Shown: piece after piece, positions 16,871 to 58,543 of the stretch
How the letters are laid out: the number at the start of each line of letters is the position of its first letter
Position numbering within the stretch: position 1 is the first letter of the stretch
Source of the DNA: Nitrosopumilus sp.
Lineage (GTDB): Archaea; Thermoproteota; Nitrososphaeria; Nitrososphaerales; Nitrosopumilaceae
Length of the DNA stretch: 64,000 bases
Reading direction: 5' to 3'
Assembly: GCA_965207075.1 (NCBI GenBank)
Contig: CBDBLO010000002.1
Span: 2,214 to 66,213 of the forward strand
Notes under the pieces: model-generated
What the model was told of the DNA's origin: nothing
The model's database searches: none
The model's input: only the letters and a program-made list of their open reading frames with translations
Position numbers and translations under genes: made by a program

Positions 16871-17293
16871 ATGTCAGACGACGGCAACGGCGCCGCGGCC
16901 AAGGAGTGGGACGAGCTGTGGGGGGAGTATTCAAGGTCCCTTGAGAACTGGAAGAGGATGTACGAGCAGGCCCAGGCCGCAAGCGCCGAGATGCAGTCCA
17001 GGTTCAACGACGTCTGGAAGAAGACGACGGTGGACACCAGCTCCGACACGATGAAGCTCTTTGCGGAGAACTGGCAGGACGCCATGCGCGACGCGGGCAT
17101 AAAGTCGTTCAGGGAGTTCAGCGAGGGATGGCAGAGGGCCCTCAGCGAGTCGGGAACCGGCGGGTTTACGCAGTTTGCAGAGAACTGGCAAAAGTCCCTG
17201 GGCACTGCGGGCCTCGAGCAGATGAATTCGTACGGCGAGATGCTCAAGCGGTTTGCCGAGACCTGGAATGCGATGTGGCCGAAGAGGGTCTGA
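16871..17293 (+). CDS. Helical repeat protein (F-x-E-x-W-Q repeats); C-terminus rewritten by a TnpB element insertion
   Basis: FAENWQ/FSEGWQ/FAENWQ/FAETWN repeats; TTTAAT box upstream; stop TGA lies inside the element's left TIR. Confidence 0.75.
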   Translation: MSDDGNGAAAKEWDELWGEYSRSLENWKRMYEQAQAASAEMQSRFNDVWKKTTVDTSSDTMKLFAENWQDAMRDAGIKSFREFSEGWQRALSESGTGGFTQFAENWQKSLGTAGLEQMNSYGEMLKRFAETWNAMWPKRV

Positions 17294-18869
17294 TACGGAA
17301 TTCAAAAAATGCCCTAAATAGGGTTGGTGAGAAATTCATTTTCCACCACCCGCAAGCGGCGGGCGGATGGCACACCCTCGGGTCGATTCGGGATTCGCGC
17401 CTGAACGTGCTCCGAGTTTTAAAAATTTTAGGTACAATGCCTCAGTCGATCCGGGTGTGTGCGCGGCGGGCGCGCAGATAAAGATATAACGGTAATTTAC
17501 CGTACAAATACTATGTTTACGTACCGAAAGTACCGCGTGCGCGCGTTGCTGACCGCGGAGCAGAGGGGGGAGATCCGGCGCCTGCGCGACGGACAGCGCC
17601 AGGCATACAACTGGGCCGTCTCAAGGCTGAGGGAGGGGTGGCCCCGGAACGACGAGTACGGGCTCTACAGGGAGCTCACCGCACAGAGGAGCAGGCACGA
17701 CTGGCTCCGCGCCGTCCCGGCTGTCATACAGCGCGCCGGAATCCGCGACGCGTTCACGGCCTCCAGGCTGTCGGCGCGGTACGGCCGCGGCGAGCCAAAG
17801 TACCGCTCCAGGAAACGCGGCCCGGGCGCGCTCAGGTGCCCGTTGGCGCCCCGCATGGTGGATCCGTGCCGCATCAGGCTCCCCTGCTTTGGCGCGGTAC
17901 GCGCGTGCATCCCGGATGAGATCATGGAATACGAGCCGCGCGCATACGAGTTCGTCCCGCACAAGGGCGGCTATCTGCTGTACGTGTCGTGCCGCGTCGC
18001 CGTGCAGGGTCAGCGGCCGCCGTCCGACGGGCCGGGCGCCTCGCGCGTGACGGTCAAGGGCGTCGACCGCGGTACGGTCGAGCCAACCGTCGTCGTCACG
18101 CTGAACCCGGACGGCAGCACGAGGAGCAAGGACACGTATGACACGGCGGCGCCCTTCCGCGACGACAGGGCCGGGCATCAGAGGAGGCAGTCCAGAATGA
18201 GCAGGAGGATGAACAGGCGCTCCGGGAGATACAGGCGGCTCCGCGCCAAGACGAGGGGGCAGCTGCGGAGAGTACGAAACCGCCGGACATACGCGGAGTG
18301 CGTGGCCGCAAAGCACGTCGTGGACGACTACAGCCCCCACACCATAGTGCTCGAGAGCCTGAACCTGTCCGGGATGACCCGCCGCGGCGGCCCTTGCAAA
18401 AAGGGCATGAACCGCGAGATGCGCTTTGTCCGACACCATGCAGTCGAGCAGCGCATCCGCAACCGCGCAGAGATGCGCGGGATCCGCGTAACCGCGACCA
18501 GCCCGCATTACACCTCGCAGACATGCTCGCGCTGCGGCCGCGTGGACGCGAAATCCAGGGTCACGCGCGACATGTTCAAGTGCACAGGGTGCCATTACAT
18601 TCAGCACGCGGATGTCAATGCCGCGTTGAACATCGGAAGGCAGGGACTGCCGACGCCTTCTGACGAGGACACGCAAGAGGCAGTCCCCGACGGAGGTTGG
18701 AACCCCTTCGTGAGACGCGAACTGGACGTGCGCCTCAATTGTTTTGTCGAGGGCCCCGCAAGGGGGCGCGAGAACCAAGTGCCTGCACGTCACCTTGCCC
18801 ACATGGGCATGGAGAAAGAACGTCAAAGGACCAATGGGGCCCGCAAGGGCTGAAGTTGGTACCAACCCC
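17286..18869 (+). mobile_element. TnpB-only element 1 with 19-bp imperfect TIRs and a 9-bp TSD
   Basis: TSD GGCCGAAGA at 17277-17285 and 18870-18878; left end GGGTCTGATACGGAATTCA; right end reverse complement GGGGTTGGTACCAACTTCA. Confidence 0.9.
17513..18853 (+). CDS. tnpB: TnpB RNA-guided endonuclease
   Basis: N-terminal HTH (YRVRALLTAEQ); RuvC D (GVDRG), E (VLESL), D (ADVNAA); zinc finger CSRC/CTGC. Confidence 0.93.
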   Translation: MFTYRKYRVRALLTAEQRGEIRRLRDGQRQAYNWAVSRLREGWPRNDEYGLYRELTAQRSRHDWLRAVPAVIQRAGIRDAFTASRLSARYGRGEPKYRSRKRGPGALRCPLAPRMVDPCRIRLPCFGAVRACIPDEIMEYEPRAYEFVPHKGGYLLYVSCRVAVQGQRPPSDGPGASRVTVKGVDRGTVEPTVVVTLNPDGSTRSKDTYDTAAPFRDDRAGHQRRQSRMSRRMNRRSGRYRRLRAKTRGQLRRVRNRRTYAECVAAKHVVDDYSPHTIVLESLNLSGMTRRGGPCKKGMNREMRFVRHHAVEQRIRNRAEMRGIRVTATSPHYTSQTCSRCGRVDAKSRVTRDMFKCTGCHYIQHADVNAALNIGRQGLPTPSDEDTQEAVPDGGWNPFVRRELDVRLNCFVEGPARGRENQVPARHLAHMGMEKERQRTNGARKG

Positions 18870-18925
18870 GGCCGAAGAGCAACTATTAGAGACAAGAATA
18901 AAAGCACCACTATGGTACGCCCGCC

Positions 18926-27292: not shown

Positions 27293-28778
27293 GGGAATTA
27301 TACGCATTAGTTCATCGCCGTCATTACCGCTGTAATGGCGGCCCCGAACCGAGCATATTTTGGGCGTTGTTTCTCCGCTCCGTTTTGGAGTGGTGACGAG
27401 CCGATGCTTGGTTTTCGCATCCCCCCTCCGCGGGGGAGCCCGCGGCCAAAAACCTGCCGCGGCGCGCGTCCAGTTCGCGCCTCACGAAGGCCATTCCCGC
27501 CTCCGGAGGGCCTGCCTCCTGCGTGGTGTCGGCGGGGCGCAGGCCGGCCCTCCCGATTATTATGGCGGCGCTTACGTCCGCCTGCTGAGTGTAATGGCAC
27601 GACACGCACCTGAACGTGTCCCGCGTCACGCGGGAGTCACTGTCCGTATGGCCGCACCCCGGGCACTTCTGGGACGTGTAGTGTGGCGCGACATGCTCCA
27701 GAACGACCCCCTCCATCTCGGCGCGGTTCCTGATCCTTTGCTCTATGGCGTGGTGGCGCACAAAGCGCATCTCGCGGTTCAGGCCCCTCTTGCGGGAGCC
27801 GCCCCTGCGGGTCATGCTTGATAGCTTGAGATCCTCCATGACGATTGCGCGTGGGCGGCCGGTCAGGCAGATCTCCTTTGCGGCGACGCACTCCGCGTAC
27901 GTGCGGCGGTTGAGAGCGCGCCTGAGCCTTTTGTTGAGCATGCAGAGGTGGTCACGGTACCGCCCGGACCTCCTGTTCTGTTTTGAGAGGCGGCTCTGAT
28001 GCCTTTGGTACGAGGTGCGGCCGTCCTTGAACGCGGAGGCCGTATCGTACGAGTCGGCGGCCAGCGGCCTGCCGCGGAGGTCCAGAGTTACCACAACGGT
28101 GGGCTCGACCGCGCCGCGGTCCACGCCCTTGATCGTCGTGCCGGGGCCCGTAGAGCGGGCGGCGGGAACTCCGACGCGGCAGGATACGTACAGCGTGTAT
28201 CTGTCGCCCACGATCCGGACGAACTCGTACGACCTGGGCTCTCCTGCAAGCAGCGCGTCGGGGACGTCGCACCTGACGGTTCCGAACCGTGGGAGCTTTA
28301 TCAGGCGCCTGTCAACGACGGTGGGCGCCAGGGGACACTTGAGCGCCGCGCCGCGGCCAGATTTTCTGGTCCTGTATCTCAGTTCTGATATGGTGTTGCG
28401 GCCGCGCCTCAGCATTGACTTGGCCGCCGTAAACGCGTCCCTGATTCCGGCGCTTTGGATGGCTCGGGGTACGGAGCGCATCCATTCGTCGCCGCCGCGC
28501 TTGTGCTGGGTGAACCTTGCGGACAGGCCGTACTCGTCGTTGGGATCCCACCCCTCCCTGAGGTTGGAGACGGCCCAGTTGTACGCGTGGCGCTGTCCGT
28601 GTCGCATCCTGGTGACATCCGCCTTCTGCTCCGCGCTCAGGCGGACGGGAACGCGGTACTTTCGATACGTAAACATGAGATTATTACGGTACTATACGGT
28701 AATAACGTTTTCGGGCGGGCAGGCGGCGGGGACAGTGGCAGTAGTGTGGGCGGCAGTGAACTAATGTATATAATTCCC
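27293..28778 (-). mobile_element. TnpB-only element 3 with 22-bp TIRs
   Basis: GGGAATTATACGCATTAGTTCA (27293-27314) vs reverse complement of 28757-28778 GGGAATTATATACATTAGTTCA (20/22); flanks GACGTCTT / GATGTGTT match 6/8 (possible decayed 8-bp TSD). Confidence 0.85.
27324..28676 (-). CDS. tnpB: TnpB RNA-guided endonuclease (divergent paralogue)
   Basis: MFTYRKYRV start; RuvC GVDRG / VMEDL / ADVSAA; CPGC/CVSC zinc finger. Confidence 0.93.
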   Translation of the reverse strand: MFTYRKYRVPVRLSAEQKADVTRMRHGQRHAYNWAVSNLREGWDPNDEYGLSARFTQHKRGGDEWMRSVPRAIQSAGIRDAFTAAKSMLRRGRNTISELRYRTRKSGRGAALKCPLAPTVVDRRLIKLPRFGTVRCDVPDALLAGEPRSYEFVRIVGDRYTLYVSCRVGVPAARSTGPGTTIKGVDRGAVEPTVVVTLDLRGRPLAADSYDTASAFKDGRTSYQRHQSRLSKQNRRSGRYRDHLCMLNKRLRRALNRRTYAECVAAKEICLTGRPRAIVMEDLKLSSMTRRGGSRKRGLNREMRFVRHHAIEQRIRNRAEMEGVVLEHVAPHYTSQKCPGCGHTDSDSRVTRDTFRCVSCHYTQQADVSAAIIIGRAGLRPADTTQEAGPPEAGMAFVRRELDARRGRFLAAGSPAEGGCENQASARHHSKTERRNNAQNMLGSGPPLQR

Positions 28779-55286: not shown

Positions 55287-56740
55287 CCCCGGGGACGTCC
55301 GGCGCACCCGTGGCCCGGGGATCACGCGCCAGCCCTGTCCCTTAATTCGCGCAACTTTGCAGCGGTATCGGCATTGTCGGCCTCGTGCTTGGATATATGA
55401 TCCCTGTACGCGGAAATTTCGGCCCCAATATCGTCTATCTCCGACGCGTTTGCGGAGTTCGCCTCCCTGTGCAGAGGGGCGTTACATAATCCCAGAAGGC
55501 GCTCTATCTCATGGTCATTGTGCCTCTGGCATTATTCCAACGCGCGTATGTCGCTGTCAATCCCTCGAATCATTTGACCGCTCCTCGTATGATTCCGCAA
55601 GGCGCCTTGCCATCTCGGCCAGTTCGGCGTGTCCCATCTTTTCTGCAAGGTCCCCGACCTTGCGGCACCTGTTGATTTCAAGGGCATAGTTTGCCATGCC
55701 GTATGTCGCGTCGTTCGGCATAAAAATATTGCCGCAGGCAGTCGGTCGCGTACAGGCTGGCCATGCAGAGGGTCAAGAAGTGGTCCGAGGTGGGGTGGGG
55801 GACCACGAGCCGGAAAAGAGGGGCGGCAGGAAAAGGACGCGGGGCCAGAAGATCATTGGGGTGTACGCGGTCTTTGCCACCGACCTTGCCGCGGCGACCG
55901 TGCGGGGCCGCAGGCCGGCAGGCCGTCATGCGCGGCCAGAGAACAGCTCGCGCACCAGGAACACGTGCTCTAGAAGGGCACTGCCCAGCATCTTTTTGCC
56001 AAAGCCGGCCGAGTCCGGGATGTCCCGCACGTATGACGCGGCCCTGCGTCCGGGATCGGGCACGCCGCCTCCACGTATGCTTTTTACCTGCTCCAGTATG
56101 TCATGCAACATGCGCGCCGCCTCGGACTTTGTAACCTCCCCGTCCAGACACCTGCGCACATGCACGGAGTATGCGCACAGCAACAGCAGCACGTCCGTGA
56201 CGTGCTCGGTCTTTCTGTACCTGTGCTTTTTTGCCAGGTACGTCCCCTGAAAGTTGTTGTAGCGCTTGGCCTGCCTGTCAGTGACACTGACTGCGGACTT
56301 TAGGTTCAGGAGCCCGAAAACGGAGCCGGTGACGCTTGCAATAATGTCAGGTATGCCATACCTCGGCTCGCGTGCAAAATGCTCCGTCTTGAAACCAGTC
56401 ATGACCTCAAACGCGCCAAGTGACACTTCAAGATCCCGCCTTGTGGAGGATTTTAACAAAAGACCTAGGTCGTAGACCTGCTTTGCGATCTCAGTCTGCT
56501 TAGAGGGCCGGAGCCCGATCGTCCCAAGCGCCAGGGTCGTAAGCTTGTCGCCCAGCAGGGAGCCCTTCGAGAGTATGCGCATGTCATGGGCGGTCTCGAA
56601 GCCAAAGAGCTCGAACCCGGATCTCTTCAGCTCCGAGTCCGGGTGCACGTCCACATCGCAGAAAAAGTCCACCTTGACATACCTTCTCCCGCCCAGGCAG
56701 GAGTCGTAGTATACCCGGTACGAGACCAGGTTGTCAAGCG

Positions 56741-58217
56741 GGGGTTGGTACGGAATTCAAAAAATGTTCTAAATGGGGGTTGGTGCCAAATTCATTTTCC
56801 ACCACTCGCAAGCGGCGGGCGTGCAGAAAGATATAAACGGTAATTTACCGTACAAATACTATGTTTACATACCGAAAGTACCGCGTGCGCGCGTTGCTGA
56901 CCGCGGAGCAGAGGGGGGAGATCCAGCGCCTGCGCGACGGGCAGCGCCAGGCGTACAACTGGGCCGTCTCAAGGCTGAGGGAGGGGTGGTCCCGGAATGA
57001 CGAGTACGGGCTCTACGGGGAGCTCACCGCGCAGAGGAGCAGGCACGACTGGCTCCGCGTCATCCCGGTTGTCATACAGCGCGCCGGAATCCGCGACGCG
57101 TTCACGGCCTCCAAGCTGTCGGCGCGGTACGGCCGCGGCGAGCCAAAGTACCGCTCCCGGAAGCGCGACCCGGGCGCGCTCAGGTGCCCGTCGGCTCCCC
57201 GCGTGGTGGATCCGTGCCGCATCAGACTCCCCGGCTTTGGCGCGGTACGCGCGCGCATCCCGGAGGAGATCATGGAATACGAGCCGCGCGCATATGAGTT
57301 CGTCCCGCACAAGGGCGGCTATCTGCTGTACGTGTCGTGCCGCGTCGCCGTGCAGGGGCAGCGGCCGCCGTCCGGCGGGCCGGGCGCCTCGCGCGTGACG
57401 GTCAAGGGCATCGACCGCGGTACGGTCGAGCCAACCGTCGTCGTCACGCTGAACCCGGACGGCAGCACGAGGAGCAAGGACTCGTATGACACGGCGGCGC
57501 CCTTCCGCGACGACAGGGCCGGGCATCAGAGGAGGCAGTCCAGAATGAGCAGGAGGATGAACAGGCGCTCCGGGAGATACAGGCGGCTCCGCGCCAAGAC
57601 GAGGGGGCAGCTGCGGAGAGTACGAAACCGCCGGACATACGCGGAGTGCGTGGCCGCAAAGCACGTCGTGGACGACTACAGCCCCCACACCATAGTGCTC
57701 GAGAGCCTGAACCTGTCCGGGATGACCCGCCGCGGCGGCCCTTGCAAAAAGGGCATGAACCGCGAGATGCGCTTTGTCCGACACCATGCAGTCGAGCAGC
57801 GCATCCGCAACCGCGCAGAGATGCGCGGGATCCGCGTAACCGCGACCAGCCCGCATTACACCTCGCAGACGTGCGCGCGCTGCGGCCGCGTGGACGCGAA
57901 ATCCAGGGTCACGCGCGACATGTTCAAGTGCACAGGGTGCCATTACATTCAGCACGCGGACGTCAATGCCGCGTTGAACATCGGAAGGCAGGGACTGCCA
58001 ACGCCTTCTGACGAGGACACGCCGGAGGCAGTCCCCGACGGAGGTTGGAACCCCTTCGTGAGACGCGAACTGGACGTGCGCCTCAATTGTTTTGTCGAGG
58101 GCCCCGCGAGGGGGCGCGAGAACCAAGTGCCTGCACGTCACCTTGCCCACCTGGGCATGGAGAAAGAACGTCAAAGGACCAATGGGGCCCGCAAGGGCTG
58201 AATTTGGTACCAACCCC
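56741..58217 (+). mobile_element. TnpB-only element 2 with 19-bp TIRs and a 9-bp TSD
   Basis: TSD TGTCAAGCG at 56732-56740 and 58218-58226; TIRs GGGGTTGGTACGGAATTCA / GGGGTTGGTACCAAATTCA (17/19). Confidence 0.95.
56861..58201 (+). CDS. tnpB: TnpB RNA-guided endonuclease (close copy of 17513..18853)
   Basis: GIDRG / VLESL / ADVNAA RuvC triad; CARC/CTGC zinc finger. Confidence 0.93.
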   Translation: MFTYRKYRVRALLTAEQRGEIQRLRDGQRQAYNWAVSRLREGWSRNDEYGLYGELTAQRSRHDWLRVIPVVIQRAGIRDAFTASKLSARYGRGEPKYRSRKRDPGALRCPSAPRVVDPCRIRLPGFGAVRARIPEEIMEYEPRAYEFVPHKGGYLLYVSCRVAVQGQRPPSGGPGASRVTVKGIDRGTVEPTVVVTLNPDGSTRSKDSYDTAAPFRDDRAGHQRRQSRMSRRMNRRSGRYRRLRAKTRGQLRRVRNRRTYAECVAAKHVVDDYSPHTIVLESLNLSGMTRRGGPCKKGMNREMRFVRHHAVEQRIRNRAEMRGIRVTATSPHYTSQTCARCGRVDAKSRVTRDMFKCTGCHYIQHADVNAALNIGRQGLPTPSDEDTPEAVPDGGWNPFVRRELDVRLNCFVEGPARGRENQVPARHLAHLGMEKERQRTNGARKG

Positions 58218-58543
58218 TGTCAAGCGGATACGGATTCCGTGGAACGTACTCCTCGCACAGGATTCCGGGCGGGGCGCCGCTTATGCCGCCCATGACGCCC
58301 CTTGTCTCGTCGACGGTCAGCCCTGTCAGAAGGTCAACGTCCACGCTCAGCCTCCTGGCCGCGCCGTCGGCCGTGTGGAACGGCATGCACATGCCCCCCC
58401 CCCTCGTGACGCAGTCCGCCCTCCGCGCTATGCGCGCGTGCACCTCAAAATCCATGATGAATTTTTCAATGGCCAGCTTGTCCCTGAACCCGTACCGTTC
58501 CGATATGGACGAGATGCTGTCCTCCTCAAGCAGCGCGGAATAC

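Follow-up and report, generated by a model that had tools for sequence, protein, structure and literature searches.

One described complex of TnpB and omegaRNA is that of ISDra2, an element of the IS200/IS605 family (PDB 8H1J, 8EXA; Nakagawa et al. 2023, PMC10097598). In this complex, the loop of stem 1 (positions -105 to -103) forms a pseudoknot with positions -5 to -3, one base from the guide (the 3' strand as a whole is placed at -6 to -2), and the C-terminal domain of the protein, whose coding sequence overlaps the omegaRNA, is disordered and dispensable (PMC10097598). TnpB and omegaRNA biology is known from IS200/IS605 and IS607 elements, which excise without a scar beside a fixed motif that doubles as the target-adjacent motif (TAM). 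Here, we describe three elements that carry only tnpB in 64,000 nt of Nitrosopumilus sp. (assembly GCA_965207075.1, contig CBDBLO010000002.1, positions 2,214 to 66,213 of the forward strand; hereafter, the window). These elements have terminal inverted repeats (TIRs) and target-site duplications (TSDs). We consider it likely that positions 18691 to 18869 of the window encode the omegaRNA scaffold of the TnpB of element 1 and that its guide is drawn from the flank, starting with the TSD.

Two further groups of described systems resemble this locus in transposon architecture. First, TnpBs of the DDE-associated branches DDE-1 to DDE-6 are surrounded by inverted terminal repeats, with the 3' end of tnpB at most 250 bp from the element end, and solo TnpBs lying between ends like those of relatives with a transposase have been described, for which the capture of guides from the flank was assumed (Altae-Tran et al. 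2023, PNAS, PMC10691335, as excerpted). Our elements share with these branches the inverted repeats around tnpB and an open reading frame (ORF) that ends near the element end; unlike in DDE-1 to DDE-6, neither the window nor the related loci looked at yielded a partner transposase or a DDE transposase gene. The excerpted text of PMC10691335 holds no description of an omegaRNA structure, an embedded TIR, or a relation between guide and TSD.

Second, Fanzor1 and Fanzor2, which belong to DDE transposons of eukaryotes and giant viruses, also place a TnpB-family nuclease on a transposon with TIRs and a TSD, with an RNA that runs through the right TIR into the flank. In Fanzor1, the TAM includes a short 5' TSD, the scaffold contains the 3' TSD, and the 3' pseudoknot has been lost (PMC13565253). 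In contrast, the TSD is long and variable here, and a pseudoknot stands at the boundary in most relatives. How TnpB serves transposons with inverted repeats and TSDs is stated to be an open question, and prokaryotic OMEGA systems outside IS605 and IS607 are described as uncharacterized, with a call for their characterization (PMC13565253); on this subject, the excerpted text of PMC10691335 only notes the inverted repeats.

An omegaRNA at the 3' end of tnpB is expected and is not a new principle; it is the setting that is uncharacterized. What is new here is an omegaRNA family with an embedded TIR and, probably, with the TSD as the seed of the guide. If the latter is true, the locus would be a first worked example of an OMEGA nuclease cooperating with cut-and-paste or cointegrate transposases in prokaryotes. 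Together with about 17 relatives, it offers an RNA model backed by covariation, a defined boundary, natural filled and empty alleles, and two candidate guides. Also, the archaeal TnpB, which is intact, compact (about 440 aa), and paired with a defined scaffold, is a candidate editing tool. The elements, their ends, and their predicted scaffolds are as follows (bit scores are those of the covariance model R1, described below).

17286-18869, forward strand: element 1, TIR-bounded, tnpB-only, and non-autonomous, delimited by the alignment of the three elements, a TIR search, and empty-site contigs.
17513-18853, forward strand: tnpB ORF of element 1, 446 aa, with an intact RuvC triad (D185/E281/D367) and zinc finger.
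Left end of element 1: degenerate left TIR, GGGTCTGATACGGAATTC, from the TIR search.
18852-18869, forward strand: right TIR of element 1, GAAGTTGGTACCAACCCC, from the TIR search; the similarity of relatives stops after its last base.
17277-17285: left TSD copy of element 1, 9 bp, GGCCGAAGA; the tenth base, G, is ambiguous.
18870-18878: right TSD copy of element 1, GGCCGAAGA(G).
18691-18869, forward strand: predicted omegaRNA scaffold of element 1, 179 nt, overlapping the last ~55 tnpB codons (stop codon at 18851-18853).
56741-58217, forward strand: element 2, about 97% identical to element 1.
56861-58201, forward strand: tnpB ORF of element 2.
Ends of element 2: perfect TIR tips, GGGGTTGGTAC.../...GTACCAACCCC, from the TIR search.
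56732-56740 and 58218-58226: TSD copies of element 2, 9 bp, TGTCAAGCG(G).
58039-58217, forward strand: predicted omegaRNA scaffold of element 2, 169 bits.
27294-28777, reverse strand: element 3, about 70% identical to element 1 in DNA and 55% in TnpB protein, with no recognizable TSD.
27324-28676, reverse strand: tnpB ORF of element 3.
Ends of element 3: TIR of a second type, GGAATTATAYRCATTAGTTCA.
27294-27505, reverse strand: predicted omegaRNA scaffold of element 3, 212 nt, 136 bits.

Like ISDra2, the locus combines a homologous TnpB (over residues 4 to 379) with a predicted sense-strand RNA that extends over the ORF's 3' end, where it encodes a disordered protein tail, and that ends at the right end of the element. 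In both, the loop of a 5' stem (stem 1 in ISDra2, P1 here) pairs with the nucleotides just 5' of the guide, here by prediction and in most relatives, and the guide comes from the flank, as is predicted here. The tail of the family begins where the disordered C-terminal domain of ISDra2 TnpB begins. Unlike ISDra2, which has neither TIRs nor a TSD and is excised scarlessly by the Y1 transposase TnpA beside a fixed TTGAT target that is also the TAM, these elements have TIRs of 18 to 30 bp, TSDs of 8 to 9 bp, a TIR embedded in the RNA, and a predicted guide that starts with the duplicated sequence; they show no evident TAM or fixed target motif. The family scaffold is 171 to 215 nt long, compared with 116 nt in ISDra2, and no sequence similarity was seen between the ISDra2 RNA and that of the family.

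A sequence-only reading of the window had noticed about 70 extra codons after RuvC-III in all three ORFs, and the count is indeed ~67 to 79 codons beyond the RuvC-III aspartate (D367 of 446). It had also pointed to nucleotide blocks kept between elements 1 and 3. The block CCTTCGTGAGRCGCGAACTGGACGYGCGCC (18705-18734; reverse strand in element 3) is identical at 28 of 30 positions, compared with ~70% over the whole element; GCGARAACCAAG and CGTCACC are present in both elements, and the hairpin GGCCCCGCRAGGGGGC at 18752-18767 recurs in element 2. Taken alone, the 28/30 match is not beyond chance (binomial ~4e-3 per 30-nt segment, with ~1300 segments), and other coding blocks are conserved as strongly. 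Because coding constraint could explain this block, relatives were gathered for comparison: DNA from 15 further loci, partly redundant, was added to the elements of the window. Scans of genome and metagenome contigs gave 7 loci, and 12 exact-protein look-ups, one of which had no match, gave the others. Alignment A3 comprises 17 candidate RNAs from Nitrosopumilaceae metagenomes, which start at CGGAGG and stop where their elements end, and the TnpBs behind these tails are about 50 to 61% identical to that of element 1.

The tail alignment displays conserved blocks between stems that differ in sequence and remain complementary. Over 32 pairs, including the pseudoknot, 96.3% of cells in A3 are paired, compared with 38 to 45% when the 3' partners are slid by 1 to 3 columns. 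Changes on both sides of a pair were seen in 13 pairs (44 cells), and none of 500 shuffles matched the observed values for pairing, double changes, or covariation. Unaided, RNAalifold returned P1, P2, P3, hairpin B, and P5. There are 39 G-U cells, including G36-U118 of P3 in 11 sequences and the invariant G3-U19 of P1; because these would be A-C mismatches on the opposite strand, they indicate an RNA on the sense strand of tnpB. The fold z-score of element 1 (-2.6, versus -1.95 for the opposite strand) does not discriminate between strands by itself. Local segments folded alone formed a hairpin at the same place in 13 to 17 of the 17 sequences, with differing stems; the z-scores of these local hairpins come from mononucleotide shuffles. 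Hairpins A, C, and D and helix P6 were judged from per-sequence folds, as choosing their arms by eye would make a column count circular. In overview, the predicted scaffold consists of P1 on its 5' side, P2, P3, and P5 as nested helices of the long-range or closing kind, the local hairpins A to D, helix P6, and, in most relatives, the pseudoknot. The parts, given for element 1 unless noted, are as follows.

18691-18710, forward strand: P1 (stem 1), CGGAGG/CCUUCG, with loop UUGGAACC at 18697-18704; 100% of cells paired, with one compensatory A-U to G-C change; in relatives, the loop is the 5' strand of the pseudoknot.
18714-18824, forward strand: P2, GACG (18714-18717) with CGUC (18821-18824), closing the central domain; 100% of cells paired, with a compensatory A-U to G-C change in element 3.
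18725-18791, forward strand: P3, GACGUGC (18725-18731) with GCACGUC (18785-18791), a long-range helix inside the most conserved block; 94% of cells paired, 3 of 7 pairs compensatory, with C-G to U-A at two positions.
18732-18752, forward strand: hairpin A, whose stem varies and is only weakly formed in element 1 (CUC...GAG); a hairpin is found at this site in 15 of 17 sequences, with differing stems (mean z of -2.8).
18751-18767, forward strand: hairpin B, GGGCCCCGCAAGGGGGC; stems CCCC/GGGG, UGUC/GACA, and CUCC/GGAG, with 3 of 4 pairs compensatory.
18766-18782, forward strand: P5, 4 bp closing the conserved loop GAGAACCAAG at 18770-18779; all 4 pairs compensatory and 100% of cells paired.
18792-18813, forward strand: hairpin C, UGCCC acau GGGCA; a hairpin is found at this site in 17 of 17 sequences, with differing stems (mean z of -2.9).
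18830-18860, forward strand: P6, ACCAAU (18830-18835) with GUUGGU (18855-18860), the latter inside the right TIR; from per-sequence folds.
18837-18851, forward strand: hairpin D, GGCCC gcaa GGGCU, enclosed by P6.
27497-27493 and 27298-27294, reverse strand: pseudoknot strands GGAAU and AUUCC of element 3.

Conservation of the tail could also come from a functional C-terminal peptide of TnpB, with the helices as a by-product of codon conservation. In keeping with such a peptide, the protein alignment A2 conserves the motifs G-T-P-F-V-R-R-E-L-D-A-R-L-N-C-F, E-N-Q, and G-M-E-K-Q-R, and AlphaFold2 places two short strands at residues 400 to 413. However, conservation at synonymous sites is higher in the tail than it is in the catalytic core: where columns share an amino acid, the codon is identical at a rate of 0.50 in the ORF body versus 0.70 in the tail (Mann-Whitney p = 3.6e-6). 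A peptide also fits poorly with compensatory double changes in 13 pairs and with a conserved structure that persists beyond the stop codon, over the 16 to 40 nt that separate it from the element end. Moreover, in one relative (protein P0026, locus L010), the best-conserved block, which reads FVRRELDAR elsewhere, is passed in another frame with its nucleotides kept. There (L010, 1100-1369), two compensating frame changes put ~25 tail codons into the other frame while the helices are kept, and P1 carries a compensatory change (CGGGGG/CCCUCG); this frame change rests on one metagenome contig, and an assembly error is possible.

Structure prediction bears on the same question. AlphaFold2, run with the family alignment, gave predicted local distance difference test (pLDDT) scores of 85 to 94 for the core versus 30 to 64 for residues 381 to 446, a tail that is thus predicted to be disordered, and solved TnpB or Cas12 structures have no counterpart of the tail past residue ~379. 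The equivalent domain of ISDra2 TnpB is, as noted above, disordered and dispensable (PMC10097598), and the C-terminal tail here is probably dispensable as well. These comparative lines point the same way, toward constraint on the tail at the level of RNA rather than protein, and we regard the functional peptide as extremely unlikely.

The sequence-only reading had suggested a covariance model of the tails as a check. Model R1, built from A3, recovered exactly the three elements in the 64-kb window, with element 1 scoring 171 bits, and it also matched, at 28 bits, the tail of a TnpB outside the seed that is 37% identical by BLASTP (38% in A2). Rfam 15 at the gathering threshold returned a tRNA as the sole match in the window, and a permissive Rfam scan of 18550-18900 gave just one chance match of 12.8 bits. 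Among the 17 tails, the similarity of relatives ends at the element boundary. The omegaRNA scaffold that the earlier reading had placed in the tnpB tail is thus borne out by covarying helices, the G-U strand signal, synonymous constraint, a frame-shifted relative, a predicted disordered tail, and the sharp end of similarity. As a prediction from comparative sequence, a structured omegaRNA scaffold on the sense strand of tnpB that ends at the last base of the element is well supported, and the tails of elements 1 to 3 belong to one structured-RNA family, which we read as a new omegaRNA family with a TIR embedded.

Within the predicted fold, the right TIR is wholly inside the RNA, where it contributes the 3' arms of two helices and, in most relatives, a strand of the pseudoknot. 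The 3' arm of hairpin D falls within the inner TIR, and in P6, the TIR interior pairs with a segment 4 to 6 nt past the AACGUC motif. The arms of P6 covary, reading ACCAAU/GUUGGU in element 1, AUAUGC/GCGUAU in element 3, and GCGG/UCGC, UCCAA/UUGGA, UUGC/GCAA, or UGCAG/UUGCA in others. When TIRs were swapped between sequences, each segment paired better with its own TIR than with those of others (10.8 versus 8.5; permutation p = 0.0006). In 15 of the 17 relatives, the P1 loop pairs with the final 5 nt of the element, as GGAAC/GUUCC in 11 sequences, as GGAAU/AUUCC in the 3 with the second TIR type, and as the wobble pairing GGAAU/GUUCC in 1. The TIR therefore has two roles, one in DNA as a site for the transposase and one within the RNA structure.

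Because the last ~30 nt of the scaffold are TIR and the left end has a second TIR-like motif, transposase-binding DNA is certainly present, and no RNA has been seen so far. The structure might accordingly act in DNA during transposition, as subterminal binding sites for the transposase or a DNA hairpin at the right end, or as a cis-regulator or terminator of the tnpB mRNA. We judge this very unlikely, as the structured region of ~180 nt has no counterpart at the left end, and its G-U pairs are strand specific, which points to RNA and not to duplex DNA. The architecture, too, is like that of a known omegaRNA, with pairing between the 5' stem loop and the 3' terminus, multiple stems, and an end at the boundary. 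Also, the flanks that follow the tails are without T-runs.

The TSDs on which the sequence-only reading drew are present as direct repeats and agree with empty alleles: GGCCGAAGA(G) occupies 17277-17285 as well as 18870-18878, and TGTCAAGCG(G) borders element 2 on both sides. In contigs of other strains from public runs, the sites of elements 1 and 2 are unoccupied and have a single copy of the repeat, which identifies the direct repeats as true TSDs. Contigs with an empty element-1 site stop at 17285 and resume past the right TSD copy. In runs X1, X2, and X4, this allele reads ...GGCCGAAGA and then CTAACTACTAGAGG; in a sponge metatranscriptome contig (X29), it reads ...GGCC, AAAAACCAATTATT, and AGACAAG in succession. 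Both versions keep the end of a host ORF (...WPKTNY, then the stop) and have at least 3 differences from the predicted guide. The empty element-2 site in an X1 contig reads ...GACCAGGT and then TGTCAAGCGG...; at window position 58218, CGTGACCAGGT is directly followed by TGTCAAGCGGATACGG in this run, in a low-depth contig from a diverged strain with one TSD copy.

A scaffold that ends at the last base of the element, combined with the ISDra2 architecture, points to a guide that would begin at the flank, i.e., at the TSD.

18870-18889, forward strand: predicted guide template of element 1, GGCCGAAGAGCAACTATTAG; the right TSD copy makes up its first 9 nt.

By analogy with ISDra2, the guide most likely starts at the TSD or one base into it. 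Read from TSD base 1, the predicted guides are GGCCGAAGAGCAACTATTAG for element 1 and TGTCAAGCGGATACGGATTC for element 2. The arithmetic of self and non-self offered by the earlier reading is right: such a guide matches the empty site in full and the occupied left junction over 10 nt only. Its proposal that the guide starts at the TSD stands as a reasonable inference from the pseudoknots of 15 of 17 relatives and from ISDra2, and is weaker for elements 1 and 2, whose ends (ACCCC) allow a shifted pairing only.

Fanzor1 suggests another arrangement, in which the 3' TSD belongs to a spacer or to the scaffold, the TAM consists partly or wholly of the one TSD at the empty site, and the guide follows the TSD. 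In structures of Fanzor1 and Fanzor2, the TAM takes in the 5' TSD, and the 3' TSD is found in the scaffold (PMC13565253). In the present family, (Y)TAAA begins 5 of 13 right flanks and might be a motif inside the TSD, and in elements 1 and 2, the sole good terminal helix ends 4 nt before the boundary, so that the distance from helix to guide is not fixed. We nevertheless think this arrangement unlikely. The TSDs are 8 to 9 bp long and mutually unrelated, and if the TAM lay wholly in the TSD, the occupied right junction would have it too, leading to self-cleavage. Also, Fanzor1 lacks the 3' pseudoknot (PMC13565253), whereas 15 of 17 relatives have a pseudoknot that abuts the boundary here.

The sequence-only reading had taken the hexamers 5' of the TSDs, CGATGT for element 1 and CCAGGT for element 2, as a weak hint of a TAM, CNANGT. 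The hexamers are as given; the motif fails with nine insertion sites, among which only C at -6 recurs (5 of 9), and was rejected. The motif AANYMTTW was not seen at the flanks by eye. In the five bases 5' of the TSD, there are 3 C among 45 positions, versus 31% C in neighboring flanks (post hoc binomial p ~ 1e-4), and C never occurs at -1 or -2 in the nine sites, where the element end, at the filled right junction, always has CC. This depletion is a weak, post hoc hint of a rule separating self from non-self, and it pools TnpBs that are only about 50 to 60% identical.

In the mechanism that we envisage, transcription, most likely of tnpB mRNA, would continue across the right end of the element, and the transcript would then be processed as it is in ISDra2. 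TnpB would retain the scaffold with 16 to 20 nt of flank as a guide, beginning with the 8- to 9-bp TSD. This guide would fully match a site that is unoccupied or precisely excised and would match the left junction over 10 nt only; at the occupied right junction, the TAM position would be filled by the tip of the TIR (..CC). Precise-excision products would form by microhomology repair between the TSD copies, and the cutting of empty alleles or of such products would favor re-copying of the element by recombination, helping its persistence or spread. We infer the production of the RNA, its binding by TnpB, the guide start, the TAM, and the benefit of empty-site cleavage to the element. As a tentative proposal, then, which may well prove wrong, an archaeal TnpB on a DDE-type transposon with TIRs and a TSD would use the duplication made by the transposase as a TAM-proximal guide seed. 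About 30 bp would serve as right TIR, helix arms, and pseudoknot strand, the CC tip would mark self, and the cutting of empty alleles would drive re-copying.

A number of observations weigh against the predicted scaffold and its guide. A3 is an MFFT-style sequence alignment without structure, and some helices were picked after the sequences had been viewed. Part of the tail, FVRRELD..LNCF, is conserved as a peptide, for which a weak beta hairpin is modeled (pLDDT of ~64). Covariation in the pseudoknot amounts to about one C-G to U-A event, which coincides with the switch in TIR type, and the swap test for the pseudoknot (p = 0.11) has no power. Elements 1 and 2 end in ACCCC, which breaks 3 of the 5 canonical pseudoknot pairs; the sole possibility left to them is a shifted GGUUGG/CCAACC pairing, which is preferred by the single-sequence fold, competes with P1, and leaves CCCC between the helix and the flank. 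With the pseudoknot out of register, the guide start is least certain in these two elements, and its strongest support comes from the relatives. The nine sites do not share a clear TAM 5' of the TSD. Also, two sponge metatranscriptomes with relatives of the organism (X25 and X29) have the empty allele and no contig on the elements, and the runs that do have the elements behave like DNA of mixed strains.

The evidence from runs comes from Logan contigs, which carry no transcript ends. In X2, depth is ~67 where element 1 begins on the left and climbs to ~1000 in its 3' half. A reading of this ten-fold rise as RNA was rejected; element 2 and its flanks are flat at ~82 to 87, and in runs X1 to X4, unrelated sequence is joined to element 1 at 17573, 17831, and 18084. 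Abundant strains offer a better explanation of the rise, as they seem to have only 5'-truncated copies of element 1, in which the RNA region is kept together with the right end. In runs X2 and X3, element 3 is replaced in a minor strain by 758 other letters, with 27292 joined to 28823; a different sequence occupies the element-3 site in this strain.

Both ends are defined in 13 elements, of which 9 have TSDs of 8 to 9 bp, and the TIRs span 18 to 30 bp. The TSDs (GGCCGAAGA, TGTCAAGCG, CAGGGCAA, CTCACTCG, and TGTACTTG, among others) are mutually unrelated and have no common motif. Four elements (those of L004/L002, L008, and L017 and window 27294-28777) have clear TIRs with no recognizable TSD, which inter-copy recombination or decay of the flanks could explain. 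The family has two types of ends, a GGGGTTGGTACC type and a GGAACTGSTGCGAATTC type. The first TIR type (GGAACTGSTGCGAATTC, GGAACTAGTGCAAGTTC) is found at the right ends of L001, L004, L010, L018, L020, and others, and the second reads GGGAATTATATAC. An identity as IS1341-type solo tnpB of IS200/IS605, a kind of element that has asymmetric hairpin ends instead of TIRs, makes no TSD, and inserts 3' of a fixed tetra- or pentanucleotide, was rejected on account of the 18- to 30-bp TIRs and the 8- to 9-bp TSDs, which the empty alleles confirm. These TIRs and TSDs would fit a non-autonomous derivative of a DDE-type element (IS1595-like or IS6-like), with no cognate transposase found in the window or the related loci. 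The first TIR type resembles the inverted repeat of IS6/IS26, GGCACTGTTGCAAA, and IS6 duplications are 8 bp, which makes IS6 a candidate origin of these ends.

The right flanks that begin with (Y)TAAA are the TSDs or flanks of L001, L008, L010, L015, and L021. Such AT-rich, promoter-like sites within genomes that are GC rich suggest that intergenic, AT-rich targets are preferred. The first base past GUUCC/AUUCC is always a pyrimidine (C or T) in the 15 A3 elements with such ends and in L021. This base may belong to the element and scaffold, like position -1 of ISDra2, or reflect a target preference, and it leaves the TSD length ambiguous by one base.

Its matches and conserved residues identify the protein as a TnpB whose catalytic triad and zinc finger are intact. 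The element-2 protein (P0002), which is near-identical to that of element 1, matches the Pfam families Cas12f1-like_TNB and HTH_OrfB_IS605, and the PF07282 match ranges from 5.6e-16 to 6.2e-18. D185, E281, D367, C338, C357, and C360 are invariant in the 25 sequences of alignment A2, in which C341 is at least 90% conserved, and the CxxC...CxxC zinc finger is present between RuvC-II and RuvC-III. The A2 profile aligns with ISDra2 TnpB (8H1J/8BF8) at an E value of ~5e-17 over residues 4 to 379 of both and no further. The tight clade comprises ~30 proteins that are 49 to 61% identical to the element-1 protein, after which identity drops to 37% and ~30%. Metagenome assemblies are the origin of most members; the few for which a source or a contig title is given belong to Nitrosopumilaceae or to other Nitrososphaerota.

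Two smaller observations concern the coding region and its most distant relative. Codons 355 to 363 (FKCTGCHYI, in the zinc-finger region; window 18575-18601) show near-complete synonymous conservation among relatives, which reflects either a functional RNA further 5' in the primary transcript or a constraint on codon choice. At the locus of the 37%-identical TnpB (L021, 2300-2536), P1, the GGAAU/AUUCC end pairing, and the GAGAACCAAG loop are kept in a scaffold that is rearranged and longer, and the TSD is 9 bp, CTAAATTTT.

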